This document shows, piece after piece, positions 10,090 to 17,200 of a DNA stretch of 64,000 nt; the first letter of the stretch is position 1; each line of letters begins with the position of its first letter. Under the pieces are notes generated by a model, which was not told the DNA's origin, did not search any database, and saw only the letters and a program-made list of their open reading frames with translations. The position numbers and the translations under genes are program-made. Source of the stretch: Escherichia coli (GTDB lineage Bacteria; Pseudomonadota; Gammaproteobacteria; Enterobacterales; Enterobacteriaceae); NCBI RefSeq assembly GCF_048403405.1, contig NZ_CP183129.1; one strand, 5' to 3'.

Positions 10090-11422
<1,333 letters not shown>

Positions 11423-11441
11423 AACTTAGTTCGTTTTAAAG

Positions 11442-11466
11442 ATTCTGCAGACACTGTCTGCAGAAT
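11442..11466. repeat. Perfect 25-bp palindrome centred between the convergent nanQ and yhcG stop codons
   Basis: ATTCTGCAGACA-C-TGTCTGCAGAAT; same core (CAGACA-N-TGTCTG with AATTC-type arms) as the three palindromes inside yhcG. Confidence 0.8.
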
Positions 11467-11481
11467 TCGAAACCGCTGAAA

Positions 11482-12609
11482 TTAACGGCGTCTATAGCCT
11501 TCCTCTAGCACCGCCTGTGTTCGAACGAGTTCATCCGCGAGTCGTTTTTCATCAGGTAGTTGCATCTTATATTCGCTCGCCAGAACGGTGTTAGGCAAAC
11601 CAGCCAGTGCATAATACGCTTCGCCGGCTCCTTTCTCTGCACAGAGAACCAGACCGATGGGCGGATTTTCATCCGGTAGTGTCCAGTGCTCTTTGGCGTA
11701 GTTGAGATACATATTCATCTGTCCGGCATCGCTATAGCTGAATTTGCCCACTTTTAGATCGACGATTAGCAGGCAGCGTAAACGGCGGTGGAAAAACAGC
11801 AGATCGACACGAAACCAGTTGTCATCAATGCGTAACCTTCGCTGTCGACCAACAAAGGCAAAATCATCCCCAAGTTCCAGCATGAAATCCATCAGGTGGT
11901 TGATCAGCGCCTCCTCAAAATCAGATTCTGAGTATTCATCTTTCAACTCCAGAAATTCGAGCACAAAGGGATCGCGTATCGCCTGTTGCGGAAGAATATG
12001 CATCTCGGCAGGAGCGTGTTGTTGCAGCATGGCTGATTTATCATGTGACAGTAGTGTTCGCTCATAAAATTGGGTCGCAATTTGCCGCTCTAGCTGGCGG
12101 ACAGACCAACCACAGCGGAGCGTTTCTTTTTCATAAAAGCTGCGGGCGTCAGCGTTTTTAACGGAAAGTAGACGGACGTAGGTGGACCAGGGCAGGGGGA
12201 AAGATTTGGCAGACAGCGTCTGCCAAATCTTTGCCGATGGGAATTCTGCAGACGGTGTCTGCGGCATTCCCAATGGTGTTAATTCGCCAGACACTGTCTG
12301 GCGAATTTCAACATGTTGAAAAAAGAGGTAAAAAAGCCTCATTTGGCGTAAGTTTTTTGCAGAGAACCCACGCTTATACCTTAGACTTAAATCCTTTGAT
12401 AGTCGCTTGATTAGCTGCGCACCATACGCAGCCCTGGCCTCGCCACCTTGTTCAAATTCGACAATTCGTCGGCCAATTTCCCAGTATGTCGCGGTCATCA
12501 GCGCGTTAACGCTACGTACCGTTTCCGTCCGGGCGCTATCGACCAGGTGAATAATACCGTCGTGGATTTGCTGGTAGCCTGTTGAGGTTCTCTCTGAGAG
12601 CGATTCCAT
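11482..12609 (-). CDS. yhcG: DUF1016 / PD-(D/E)xK nuclease-fold protein YhcG
   Basis: 375-aa ORF; C-terminal region ...FAFVGRQ...RVDLLFFHRRLRCLLIVDLKVGKF...ENPPIGLVLC resembles restriction-endonuclease-like fold of the YhcG family; convergent with nan operon. Confidence 0.85.
   Translation of the reverse strand: MESLSERTSTGYQQIHDGIIHLVDSARTETVRSVNALMTATYWEIGRRIVEFEQGGEARAAYGAQLIKRLSKDLSLRYKRGFSAKNLRQMRLFYLFFQHVEIRQTVSGELTPLGMPQTPSAEFPSAKIWQTLSAKSFPLPWSTYVRLLSVKNADARSFYEKETLRCGWSVRQLERQIATQFYERTLLSHDKSAMLQQHAPAEMHILPQQAIRDPFVLEFLELKDEYSESDFEEALINHLMDFMLELGDDFAFVGRQRRLRIDDNWFRVDLLFFHRRLRCLLIVDLKVGKFSYSDAGQMNMYLNYAKEHWTLPDENPPIGLVLCAEKGAGEAYYALAGLPNTVLASEYKMQLPDEKRLADELVRTQAVLEEGYRRR
12200..12307. 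repeat. Three tandem 39-bp units, each containing a 27-33 bp palindrome, in-frame inside yhcG
   Basis: Palindromes at 12200-12232 (perfect 15-bp arms), about 12241-12269 (imperfect) and 12281-12307 (perfect 13-bp arms); centres spaced exactly 39 bp; encode 13-aa units QTVSGELTPLGMP / QTPSAEFPSAKIW / QTLSAKSFPLPWS on the minus strand. Confidence 0.85.
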
Positions 12610-12792
12610 TATCTGTCCCTTTATATGGCGCTGTGTTGAATAATGGAATCAGCTATACGCCGGGCATCTGCCGGTAACAATCCAGATGTGCGTATTACAT
12701 TGGTTTTCTTCAGATTATGCGAGGCGCTTTCCAGTACGAAAGGAGAATTTCAGCGCCGACTCTTTTCTGAGGAGGCGGCGCTGGGACAGAGC

Positions 12793-14223
<1,431 letters not shown>

Positions 14224-17200
14224 TTACTGCGCCTGCACGCGCAACTCTGCTGCGCTACGACTACGGTGACCCAGCAGTGCTTTTACATCACTGGACTTCG
14301 GTTTAACCAGCGCAAATTTAGTGGCGAAGGTTGACCAGTTCGCCAGAATCTCTTCACCGCGCTGAGAACCGGTATGCTGAACATGCTCGGTGATAAGACC
14401 GCGCAGATGCTCTTCATGGATCGCCAGATCGTCAACGCTTAAGACCTCGACCAGTTCCGGGTTAACGCGTTTGCGGAAATCGCCGCTTTCATCGAGAACG
14501 TAAGCGAAGCCGCCGGTCATGCCCGCGCCGAAGTTAACGCCGGTTTTACCCAGAATACAGACAATACCGCCCGTCATATATTCACAGCCGTTGTCGCCAA
14601 TGCCTTCTACCACGGTGATAGCACCGGAGTTACGCACGCCGAAACGTTCACCCGCGCGGCCTGCGGCATACAGACGACCTCCGGTCGCGCCATACAGGCA
14701 GGTGTTGCCGATAATGCTTGCTTCATGGCTGCGGAAGGCTGAGCCAACCGGAGGACGAATGGCGATTAAGCCGCCCGCCATGCCTTTACCGACATAGTCG
14801 TTGGCATCACCGGTCAGGTACAGTTCCACGCCGCCCGCGTTCCACACACCGAAGCTCTGGCCTGCGGTGCCGTTGAAGTACGCTTTGATCGGATCGGCTG
14901 CCAGACCCTGATCGCCGTGCGTCTGGGCGATATAGCCTGAAAGCGACGCGCCGACAGAACGGTCGGTGTTGCGAATATCGAACCAGAAGGTTTTGCTCTG
15001 ACGCTCATCGACAAACGGTTTTGCCTGTTGCAGCAACTGTGCGTTCAGCAGGCCGTTATCAAACGGCGGGTTGTTTTCGGTACAGTAGAGCGCCTTACCT
15101 GGATGCGGCTCAGCGGTCTCCAGCAGTTTCGACAGCGCCAGTTTCTGCTGTTTGGCGGTGAAACCGTCCAGCTCTTTCAGCAGGTCGGTGCGACCAATCA
15201 GATCCACCAGACGCGTTACCCCCAGCTGTGCCATCAGCTCGCGGGTTTCACGGGCGATAAACTCAAAGTAATTAGTCACCTTGAACGGCAGGCCGTGATA
15301 GTGATTCTTACGCAGTTTGTCATCCTGAGTTGCTACACCCGTCGCGCAGTTGTTCAGGTGGCAAATACGCAGATATTTACAGCCGAGCGCCACCATCGGA
15401 CCGGTGCCGAAGCCGAAGCTTTCTGCGCCGAGAATCGCCGCTTTGATGATATCGACACCCGTTTTCAGGCCGCCATCGACCTGCAAACGAATTTTATGAC
15501 GCAAGCCGTTGGCAACCAGCGCCTGCTGGGTTTCCACCAGACCGAGTTCCCACGGACAGCCTGCGTATTTCACCGATGAAAGCGGGCTTGCGCCGGTGCC
15601 GCCGTCATAGCCTGCGATGGTGATTAAATCGGCATAAGCTTTCGCCACACCGGTCGCGATGGTGCCTACTCCCGGTTCGGACACCAGCTTCACGGAGATC
15701 ATCGCTTTCGGGTTAACCTGCTTGAGGTCGAAAATCAGCTGCGCTAAGTCCTCGATAGAGTAGATATCGTGGTGCGGCGGCGGGGAGATCAGCGTCACTC
15801 CGGGCACCGAATAGCGCAGTTTGGCGATGTAAGGCGTGACTTTATCGCCCGGTAACTGACCGCCTTCGCCCGGCTTCGCGCCCTGGGCGACTTTAATCTG
15901 AATGACGTCGGCATTGACCAGATACGCCGGAGTAACCCCAAAGCGACCAGAAGCCACCTGCTTGATGCGCGACACTTTGTTAGTGCCATAGCGCGCCGGA
16001 TCTTCGCCGCCTTCACCGGAGTTAGAGTTGCCGCCGATGCTGTTCATCGCTTCCGCCAGCGCCTCGTGGGCTTCCGGGCTTAACGCGCCGATAGACATCG
16101 CAGCGGTATCGAAGCGTTTAAACAGTTCGCTTGCCGGTTCAACATCCGCAATGTTGACCGCGTTTTCACCCGGCGTAATTGCCAGCAGATCGCGCAGCGT
16201 GGTTGCCGGACGCTCATTAACCAGCTTCGCGTATTCCTGATAGTCGCTGTACTCGCCGCTTTGTACCGCCTGTTGCAGCGTGCGCACCACGTCCGGGTTG
16301 TAGGCATGGTATTCGCCGCCGTGGACGTATTTCAGCAGGCCGCCCTGGCTGATGGGCTTACGCGCCAGCCAGGCACGTTTCGACAGATTCAGCAGATCCT
16401 GCTGGAAGTCTTCAAAGCTCGCCCCACCAATGCGACTGACCGCCCCCTGGAAGCACAGGCCCACGACATCATCGTGTAGACCGACCGCTTCAAACAGTTT
16501 CGAGCAGCGGTAAGAGGCGATGGTGGAAATGCCCATTTTGGACATGATTTTGTACAAGCCTTTGTTGATGCCGTTACGGTAGTTGAGCATCACGGTACGA
16601 TAATCTTTGGCAATCGCGTGGGTGTCTACCAGGCGGCCCAGCGTTTCATAGGCAAGGTACGGATAAATAGCCGTCGCACCGAAGCCCAGCAACACGGCGA
16701 AATGGTGCGGATCGCGGGCGCTGGCGGTTTCGACGATGATGTTGGCATCGCAACGCAAGCTTTGATCGACCAGACGGGTCTGGATCGCGCCAACCGCCAT
16801 CGGGGCTGGAACCGGCAGGCGATCTTTAGCGATATTCCTGTCGGAGAGCACCAGCAACACGGTGCCGCTACGTACCATTTTTTCAGCTTTGTCGCACAGC
16901 TCTTTGACCGTCGCTTCGAGCGTGGTTTTGGTGACGTCAAAGGTGATATCCAGTGTATCTGCGCGGTAGTGCTCCTCTTTCATCGTCGTGAGCTGTTTGA
17001 AATCGGAGTAGAGCAGAATCGGCGATTTAAAACTTAAACGGTGCGCCTGGCCCTCTGCTTCACAGAAGACGTTCATTTCACGACCAATGCTGGTGGCGAG
17101 CGACATAACATGCGCTTCACGCAGCGGGTCGATTGGCGGGTTAGTCACCTGGGCAAACTGCTGGCGGAAGTAGTCGTAAATAATGCGCGGCTGACTGGAG

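Follow-up and report, generated by a model that had tools for sequence, protein, structure and literature searches.

A self-complementary DNA element, fixed in codon phase, in the linker of Escherichia coli yhcG and its DUF1016 relatives

The yhcG gene of Escherichia coli encodes a member of the DUF1016/YhcG family, a very widespread and uncharacterised group of nucleases which is often encountered in restriction-modification loci, prophages and conjugative elements. In the 64,000-nucleotide stretch of contig NZ_CP183129.1 analysed here (hereafter the window), which covers the E. coli nan–yhcG–gltDB region, yhcG contains three tandem palindromes, in which a self-complementary DNA element that occurs family-wide and is locked in codon phase has been amplified locally and in frame. 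The element is conserved in the family and its arms covary, and it is accompanied by copy-number polymorphism among strains, by breakpoints within the palindromes and by mosaicism of the flanking protein modules. Hairpin or cruciform formation may be both the cause of these events and the target of selection, and we judge the chances to be about even that the element functions as a DNA hairpin/cruciform joint driving in-frame length change and recombination.

A coding palindrome that keeps its phase and compensates changes between its arms across phyla is not a product of protein evolution. It offers a handle on the family, as a candidate cis-site or substrate for the purified enzyme, and may show a gene equipped with a structure-forming recombination joint of its own. 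In the literature mentioning yhcG or DUF1016, and in further searches (with partial journal coverage), we found no account of the palindromes, their covariation or their conservation in the family; a 78-bp size polymorphism of yhcG is already known from the typing of O157:H7 strains.

Palindromic units at the yhcG locus

An inverted-repeat search located the three palindromes with the coordinates, arms, 39-bp spacing and peptides that had been described in an earlier note on this DNA, made from the sequence alone. Their plus-strand centres are spaced 39/39 nt and lie in register (Table 1; units numbered in gene order). Unit 1 reads AATTCGCCAGACA-C-TGTCTGGCGAATT (12281-12293/12295-12307; 13 nt, 100%, 1-nt centre), unit 2 reads GGAATTCTGCAGAC-GGT-GTCTGCGGCATTCC, and unit 3, AAAGATTTGGCAGAC-AGC-GTCTGCCAAATCTTT, is the perfect inner 15 bp of a longer inverted repeat (12197-12214/12218-12235; 18 nt, 94%). 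The 39-nt period corresponds to 13 codons and the yhcG frame is therefore kept, as was checked in the translation, which across the array contains ...EIRQTVSGELTPLGMPQTPSAEFPSAKIWQTLSAKSFPLPWSTYV... The three copies are 67-74% identical to each other, and Tandem Repeats Finder reported nothing on the array because the units are too diverged. The arms of unit 3 compensate one another despite the amino-acid cost (TGG/GCCAAA), whilst unit 1 is the copy retained in one-unit alleles and in orthologues, including that of O157:H7.

A covariance model (R1) built from the palindrome unit was scanned over the 64-kb window and the family loci. In the window it gave just four matches, all within or beside yhcG: unit 1 scored highest (43.4 bits, E 1.9e-10), units 3 and 2 scored 34.2 and 30.5 bits, and the remaining match (39.2 bits, E 5e-9) is a fourth, non-coding copy which was absent from the earlier note. 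This copy, GATTCTGCAGACA-C-TGTCTGCAGAATTC, lies approximately 15 nt beyond the end of yhcG, where 59 nt separate its stop codon from the converging one of nanQ/yhcH, and is translated in frame as ...RILQTLSGES... in a read-through allele (P0023). At its centre 3004 genomes have C and 407 have G; this split fits inversion of the central base, although it could equally be a single inherited change.

Table 1. Positions of yhcG, its palindromic units and the strain-variable segment in the window
Feature	Coordinates	Strand	Product or encoded peptide	Description
yhcG	11482..12609	minus	375-aa DUF1016/YhcG	helical N-part, predicted disordered loop with units, helical middle, PD-(D/E)XK domain
Palindrome unit 1	12276..12312		EIRQTVSGEL	centre 12294; 13-bp perfect arms; one central base
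Palindrome unit 2	12237..12273		GMPQTPSAEFP	centre 12255; 14-bp arms, 2 mismatches; 3-nt loop
Palindrome unit 3	12198..12234		KIWQTLSAKSF	centre 12216; 15-bp perfect arms; 3-nt loop
Fourth palindrome copy	11436..11472		non-coding	centre 11454; 12-bp perfect arms
78-bp segment	12195..12272		two units	in window allele; missing from one-unit alleles, e.g. O157:H7 lineage I

The core CAGAC-N(1-3)-GTCTG has five matches in the 64 kb compared with 0.13 expected, and none of 100 shuffles reaches five, so that the motif exceeds chance. The fifth core match (16771-16782, CAGACGGGTCTG, inside gltB) has 5-bp arms and is without a covariance-model match; it is probably a chance occurrence. Folding of the yhcG mRNA across the region, which the note had proposed, gave -64.1 kcal/mol for the 151-nt array RNA as compared with -32.9 +/- 3.7 for shuffles (z = -8.4); folded as DNA, unit by unit, the palindromes gave z = -4.6 to -8.7. 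Rfam 15 yielded no family match over 11300-12800 (top scores 12-22 bits against gathering scores of 34-100). A terminator scan called none of the four palindromes and no T-run follows any of them, so an intrinsic terminator was rejected.

Pfam places DUF1016_N (PF17761) at residues 19-184 of YhcG (E 1e-41), followed by the YhcG_C PD-(D/E)XK domain (PF06250; residues 208-360, E 5e-56), the arrangement by which family members are recognised; the three units form an insertion inside the DUF1016_N span, which covers 166 residues as against 137 model positions. In the AlphaFold model (mean pLDDT 80.5) helices occupy residues 7-96, and a helical part and the PD-(D/E)XK fold follow residue 140; residues 97-140 have no secondary structure, with pLDDT of about 46-51 for residues ~101-130. 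The top solved Foldseek matches are to NucS/EndoMS (2vld, 5gke), followed by the Bax1 and Can2 nuclease domains, in agreement with a 2005 assignment near the archaeal Holliday-junction resolvases (PMC1189080). NCBIfam contains no model for YhcG, and a sequence search of the PDB found no relative. PADLOC lists the family as the candidate defence gene PDC-S02, and DUF1016 genes are enriched beside type I restriction loci with programmed inversions (PMC9881135).

The element across the DUF1016/YhcG family

With a 12-sequence alignment as the query we sampled 80 DUF1016 genes with DNA, one genome per species, from Bacteroidota, Firmicutes, Proteobacteria, Nitrospirota, Chlorobi, Fibrobacteres, Gemmatimonadota, Parcubacteria and one nanoarchaeal metagenome-assembled genome; 82 loci (given L numbers) were analysed, the linker being bounded in the protein alignment by the F of 'MRxFY' and the W of 'LSWSHY'. 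Representatives at 38-60% identity carry one to about five short units directly before the LSWSHY motif (1-4 were scored per linker; peptide repeats suggest up to ~5), and the unit peptides vary: QTxS, QPVA, DALR, HAVR, ETVF, NTLS and YTVC, and also HALR, ATVL and QQxV. The earlier suggestion that relatives carry a single QT.S unit thus holds for some genes as regards the number and fails for others, which have up to about five units, often not QTxS because the palindrome alone is kept.

Most linkers contain near-perfect palindromes in a common register and of differing sequence, for example AATTCGTCAGACAGTGTCTGACGAATT (Pedobacter); AAAATCCGCAACACTGTTGCGGATTTT; CAAATTGGTCAGAAGGTTTCTGACCAATTTG (Oscillospiraceae); AATTTCCGAGAAGCCTTCTCGGAAATT (Nitrospiraceae); ATTGGGGCAACAGTGTTGCCCCAAT (Fibrobacter); and TCCACGCACTGCGTGGA (Nanoarchaeota). 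The longest perfect stem averages 8.3 bp in linkers, compared with 4.8 bp after synonymous resampling (200 resamplings of each linker peptide) and 4.8 bp in other windows of the same genes; it is at least 8 bp in 46/82 loci, and in 46/82 it is longer than any stem elsewhere in the gene. A hairpin score of at least 8 is reached by 84% of the 79 distinct linkers and by 3.3% of 1135 equal-sized control windows, and perfect hairpins with arms of at least 10 bp occur at 2.8/kb in linkers versus 0.11/kb elsewhere in the loci. Units were found in 80/82 loci and are centred on codon position 1 in 113 of 128 cases; neighbouring units are mostly 36 or 39 nt apart (period range 30-39 nt, unit 27-33 nt). 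A phase-0 hairpin is likewise present in all five genes examined of the LPWGHN subfamily (…IVQQxVAQLPWGHN…), e.g. AATTGGTCAACAAGCTGTTGACCAATT; the extension to this subfamily is based on these five genes, and the viral-contig scans yielded 1 and 4 loci. Three genome contigs (L029, L049 and L066) have two DUF1016 genes in tandem, each with its own palindrome and with different stems, and the L049 pair spans both subfamilies (LSWSHY and LPWGSN).

When 83 units are aligned without gaps (A3), the consensus is AATTnnnCAGACA[C/G]TGTCTGnnnAATT, with an invariant A at -12, a near-invariant T at +12, variable stem positions between them and the core ACA-S-TGT. Among these units, which were picked by hairpin score, 82% of the cells are paired in the named structure compared with 60% in shuffles; the covariation score is 0.573 versus 0.178 for shuffles (0/500 reach it) and 0.07-0.14 for slid partners, and the variable stem positions show three or four pair types each. 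Stems differ between the units of one gene, each unit being Watson-Crick self-complementary. The peptide varies with them, with Q/H/E/A/Y at one position and S/R/F/L/C at its partner, and the invariant A(-12) is the first base of a codon for Ile, Lys or Asn.

Internal mismatches over the units (G:T 20, A:C 29, others 58) contain no excess of wobble pairs, and G:U makes up ~2% of paired cells. Complementarity reaches a single central base in 88/128 units. At the centre C (43) and G (36) occur to the near exclusion of A and T, base preferences on the two sides mirror each other as far as +/-14, the non-coding copies equal the coding ones in palindromic character, and two loci (L111 and L112) differ by one arm base. 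The lack of wobble excess, the 1-nt centres, the mirror symmetry, the palindromic non-coding copies and the lack of an Rfam or terminator match point to Watson-Crick self-complementarity that is held at the DNA level, via selection for a hairpin or cruciform, arm-to-arm templating, or both. Since the palindrome is kept and the peptide varies across the family, the earlier view of a nucleic-acid rather than a protein feature is borne out, and this suggests that DNA rather than peptide is what conservation acts on. The 'QTxS' peptide does no more than translate the palindrome and lies in a predicted disordered loop; in annotation, the repeat should be treated as a shadow of the DNA and not as a protein motif.

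In other family loci, covariance-model matches fall almost exclusively in linkers. Besides the post-stop copy of E. coli, the exceptions are the linkers of second, tandem DUF1016 genes, a unit translated within the N-terminal extension of L066 (…QILQQPVVKS…), and, in three loci from Clostridia (L022, L023 and L027), a copy immediately ahead of the ribosome-binding site (GAATTGGGTAGACGACGTCTACCCAATTC). The Clostridial upstream copy resembles the same gene's own linker unit and has a -10-like TATGAT, read by eye, on one side and the ribosome-binding site on the other; a consensus promoter scan called no promoter at this copy, leaving the -10 box unconfirmed. A hairpin scan, as opposed to the model, showed that in L031 and L069 the stop codon is followed, at 6-9 nt, by looser palindromes. 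In viral contigs, an exact-pattern scan gave 22 sites, 14 in DUF1016 open reading frames (ORFs), three in remnants of such genes and five without assignment.

Several further palindromes were seen near family genes. L066 has two unusually placed units (1462-1498 and 2878-2914), of which one is that of the N-terminal extension and the other lies in the N-terminal 'RAEYGKRIVATLSQQL' segment of an apparent adjacent second gene. Palindromes that score with the model occur 200-500 bp from the DUF1016 gene in two Fibrobacter loci (L064, 985-1021 and 1297-1333; L065, 1744-1780), where the DNA is AT-rich and seems to be intergenic. A Bacteroidales DUF1016 gene in L021 is followed downstream by two 27-nt palindromes of another family (2752-2778 and 2786-2812; CAGTTGTAAAGGATTACTTTACAACTG and a variant), 34 nt apart. 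The remnants in viral contigs include 179-nt direct repeats (L106, 4686-4864 and 6008-6186; L105, ~10566; L093, ~8860), which are internally deleted DUF1016 genes laid out as two hairpin units, '...FKLS..LMRMEDINARNFYEIEAF' and then the gene's last codons. In L106 they flank a two-gene cassette beside an integrase, the first product of which has a SocA-like antitoxin domain (below the NCBIfam cut-off); in L105 a complete DUF1016 gene takes the place of one flanking remnant.

Strain alleles, rearrangements and module mosaicism

The yhcG region was found in 4054 of 5426 complete E. coli genomes. The palindrome family occupies a median of three and at most six places per genome, confined to the yhcG locus, and strains have 1, 2 or 3 units in yhcG, with periods of 12 or 13 codons in the alleles with two or three. 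This comparison of copy number between strains, also proposed in the earlier note, upholds its view of an in-frame expansion of a hairpin-forming element, as one O157:H7 strain has one unit and other strains have two or three. O157:H7 ATCC 43889 (L002) encodes a 349-aa YhcG with the first unit only and lacks the 78-bp segment of Table 1, the boundaries of which are ambiguous by 2 nt because of a common 'ca'. Protein clusters reveal two forms of one-unit allele (...QTVSGELTPLPW and ...QTVSGESFPLPW), two-unit alleles of 362 aa and 370 aa, and a three-unit allele of 382 aa on a 12-codon period. The units of the 382-aa allele (L005) are CTGCAGACA/TATCTGCAG, CTCCAGACA/TGTCTGGAG and CGCCAGACA/TGTCTGGCG; the stems differ among the units, each of which is self-complementary, the first with one mismatch adjoining the centre. 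Nucleotide divergence between this allele and that of the window is limited to a ~260-nt patch which stops where the array ends on its downstream side.

The six loci of LSPA-6 typing include yhcG, whose lineage-I amplicon is 394 bp long (PMC3514354; PMC8733641). The 78 bp are present in other O157:H7 strains. In the original assay the other LSPA-6 yhcG allele was reportedly 78 bp longer. The element offers a reason for this length polymorphism, which has long been used in O157:H7 typing without explanation.

Other rearrangements have breakpoints within the palindromes. In 726/5426 genomes, including BL21, the 3′ part of yhcG is replaced from 12204, inside an arm of unit 3; an IS1 insertion also lies within an arm of unit 3, and a 52-bp deletion fuses the left arm of one unit with the right arm of the next. 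In BL21 (L001, 2030-2500) a 471-bp single-copy segment substitutes for window positions ~11425-12203, and the replacement of this type removes the 3′ two-thirds of yhcG together with the intergenic palindrome. The segment encodes a 101-aa ORF annotated 'transposase' (WP_000639208.1), for which Pfam, NCBIfam, PHROGs and PADLOC gave no match. In a dog isolate (E. coli 18KM2445; L004, 3046-5049) yhcG is truncated and the DNA on its far side is not gltD but codes for two other products, a VWA-domain protein and a DUF5682 protein; this locus is thus rearranged on both sides.

Across 3160 pairs, identities of the N- and C-terminal protein parts, on either side of the linker, correlate at only 0.57. 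L060 and L061 share ~20-50% identity before the linker and 75-90% after it, and L059/L071 shift in the same direction, whereas L046/L075 show the reverse (~83% before, 35-55% after). As the shift goes both ways, it does not merely reflect a faster-evolving N-terminal part; at the level of sequence comparison, the pattern is suggestive of exchange of N- and C-terminal modules at the linker.

A structure-forming joint and its alternatives

In the explanation that we favour, the 27-33-bp element would act in cis, on the DNA level, as a structure-forming joint, pairing as a hairpin in single-stranded DNA or as a cruciform in the duplex. Its arms would stay complementary through intrastrand templating (quasipalindrome template switching) and/or selection for pairing, and a hairpin formed during replication would provoke slippage, breakage and recombination at the linker. 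The outcomes would be a linker that changes its copy number in frame (E. coli has alleles with 1, 2 and 3 units), deletions and insertions in its neighbourhood, and exchange of N- and C-terminal modules among family members. The host loop, with no predicted secondary structure and low pLDDT, tolerates the palindrome. E. coli is known to undergo template-switch mutation at quasipalindromes (PMC7202029), and palindromes are recognised as fragile sites which are normally deletion-prone (PMC7999016). The compensation between arms in yhcG, the L111/L112 pair and the central C/G split are consistent with a template-switch site, although the flip is maybe a single inherited event.

Several points weigh against such a joint. 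Arms of 12-15 bp are short for cruciform extrusion. The Clostridial copies before the ribosome-binding site and the post-stop copy of E. coli are better placed for an operator or for 5′/3′ hairpins of an mRNA, and the conserved A(-12), T(+12) and core ACA-S-TGT suggest sequence-specific recognition, of which a purely structural joint has no need. The percentage of paired cells in A3 is inflated because its units were picked by hairpin score, and independent support for pairing comes from the linker controls (stem length, scores of at least 8 and arms of at least 10 bp). The 80 loci are the best matches to a single query alignment and hence a non-random sample of the family, and the evidence for mosaicism comprises three inspected pairs and the global correlation of 0.57.

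A related possibility, in our view unlikely, is that the palindrome is the cognate cis-site of the NucS/Holliday-junction-resolvase-like YhcG nuclease and would be bound or cut as a hairpin or cruciform in the enzyme's own gene. If YhcG does recognise it, DUF1016 genes would be self-recombining modular cassettes, and a candidate anti-phage gene would possess a homing-like or diversity-generating mechanism, with sites also at gene borders in some lineages.

The earlier note had considered mRNA structure and protein-binding sites, and each of these readings accounts for part of the data and leaves part unexplained. Hairpins in the yhcG transcript might control its stability, RNase III processing, ribosome pausing between domains or autoregulatory binding by YhcG, with the 5′ and post-stop copies forming protective terminal stem-loops. 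The very stable sense-strand fold, the copy directly before the Shine-Dalgarno sequence in the three Clostridia loci, the palindromes that E. coli, L031 and L069 have within 6-18 nt after the stop, and a covariation which matches that expected of an RNA helix are all in keeping with this. Nonetheless, a wobble signature is lacking (with G:U-type mismatches no more frequent than A:C), complementarity mostly extends to a 1-nt centre that an RNA hairpin does not require, base preferences are mirror-symmetric with C or G equally at the centre, and neither a T-run nor an Rfam match accompanies the hairpins. Because fast templating at the DNA level could erase wobble pairs, these points weaken the explanation, which we regard as unlikely. 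Were the palindrome instead a duplex operator for a symmetric dimer (the N-part of YhcG or a partner) in autoregulation, with the internal copies as auxiliary sites or roadblocks, its invariant A(-12)/T(+12), its core and a central G:C pair in either orientation would be typical of a dimer site, and the Clostridial copy, lying between the -10-like sequence and the ribosome-binding site in three loci, would be suitably placed. However, a single half-site preference is insufficient to explain stems that are self-complementary yet differ within a gene and between paralogues of one genome; an upstream copy is missing from most genes, E. coli yhcG among them, the promoter scan made no call at the Clostridial site, and the fixed codon phase inside the gene is left unexplained. 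We consider an operator quite unlikely.

The palindrome could also be neutral and self-perpetuating, an ancestral inverted repeat in an unconstrained loop which persists by repair of one arm from the other, has no function and is unstable as a side effect. A loop of variable length and predicted disorder would allow this, arms that compensate even at amino-acid cost (L111 versus L112) would be expected from it, and template-switch rates are high at E. coli quasipalindromes (PMC7202029). Set against these are the presence of the element in 84-97% of the sampled members, across phyla, subfamilies and an archaeon, in one codon phase; conserved positions beyond the choice of amino acid, such as A(-12) in I, K or N codons; and extra out-of-frame copies beside the gene in unrelated lineages. 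As palindromes are normally deletion-prone (PMC7999016), such long retention suggests selection, and we consider neutrality quite unlikely. Least probable by far is a small mobile palindromic element (REP-, MITE- or RPE-like) that was inserted in yhcG and then duplicated, as the earlier note had suggested. Palindromic elements occur in frame elsewhere, as discussed below, and one copy lies outside yhcG, but an E. coli genome has so few copies, all at this locus (as are the four matches in the window), and 17 of the 22 viral-contig sites lie in DUF1016 ORFs or their remnants. Position is homologous throughout the family, and so is codon phase (113/128 units), which points to inheritance with the gene and not to insertion; mobile in-frame palindromes were rejected on these grounds, and the REP/BIME class, with tens to hundreds of dispersed, mostly intergenic copies, on the maximum of six places per genome.

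The joint that we favour can be compared with several known systems. Integron attC sites are 57-141 bp long and imperfect, have extrahelical bases, lie outside reading frames at the 3′ end of a cassette and need the integron integrase. They resemble the yhcG element in that structure is conserved over sequence and in a position at module borders, and would resemble it also in the folded single strand and the shuffling of genes; as the yhcG units are near-perfect, 27-33 bp long and in frame, an attC site was rejected on size, pairing and location. A CRISPR array was likewise rejected, since the repeats are 67-74% alike, are separated by 6-12-nt gaps and lie inside a reading frame. In type I HsdS proteins (EcoR124I/II) a tandem 12-bp (TAEL) repeat in the central region affects target spacing. 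There, too, repeat number changes in frame in a linker between modules of a restriction/defence protein, at a joint which allows module exchange, but the TAEL repeat is a plain direct repeat with a demonstrated effect on spacing, whereas the YhcG unit is a palindrome. At Neisseria pilE, an upstream G-quadruplex initiates recombination; in both cases a non-B DNA structure by or in the gene would start diversifying recombination, although the yhcG structure would be a hairpin or cruciform inside the reading frame and its initiating role is inferred.

In Rickettsia, palindromic elements (RPE) are inserted in frame into genes. Coding palindromic repeats are also described in Mollicutes, as palindromic amphipathic repeat coding elements (PARCELs; PMC2996958). 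Like these, the yhcG element is palindromic DNA in a reading frame, which is translated, tolerated in loops or surface segments and variable in copy number; unlike them, dispersed and mobile elements of ~100-150 nt in many unrelated genes, it measures 27-33 nt and keeps to one family and one position. PARCELs, which encode amphipathic helical repeats, were rejected on this difference in length and because the segment encoded in yhcG has no predicted secondary structure. Quasipalindrome hotspots (PMC7202029) are similar in being short imperfect inverted repeats, the arms of which are corrected against each other in replication, and such correction would account for the compensated changes of the arms and the flipped central bases in the yhcG family. 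Those hotspots are incidental mutational sites, whereas the yhcG palindrome is kept across phyla in one gene family, which speaks for something beyond a mutational accident.

On the other side of yhcG from the post-stop palindrome, window positions ~12610-12790 form the yhcG–gltD intergenic region, the site of the published non-coding RNA G0-10703. This stationary-phase RNA is divergently transcribed, with a 128-bp overlap antisense to the 5′ untranslated region of yhcG (PMC7967276).

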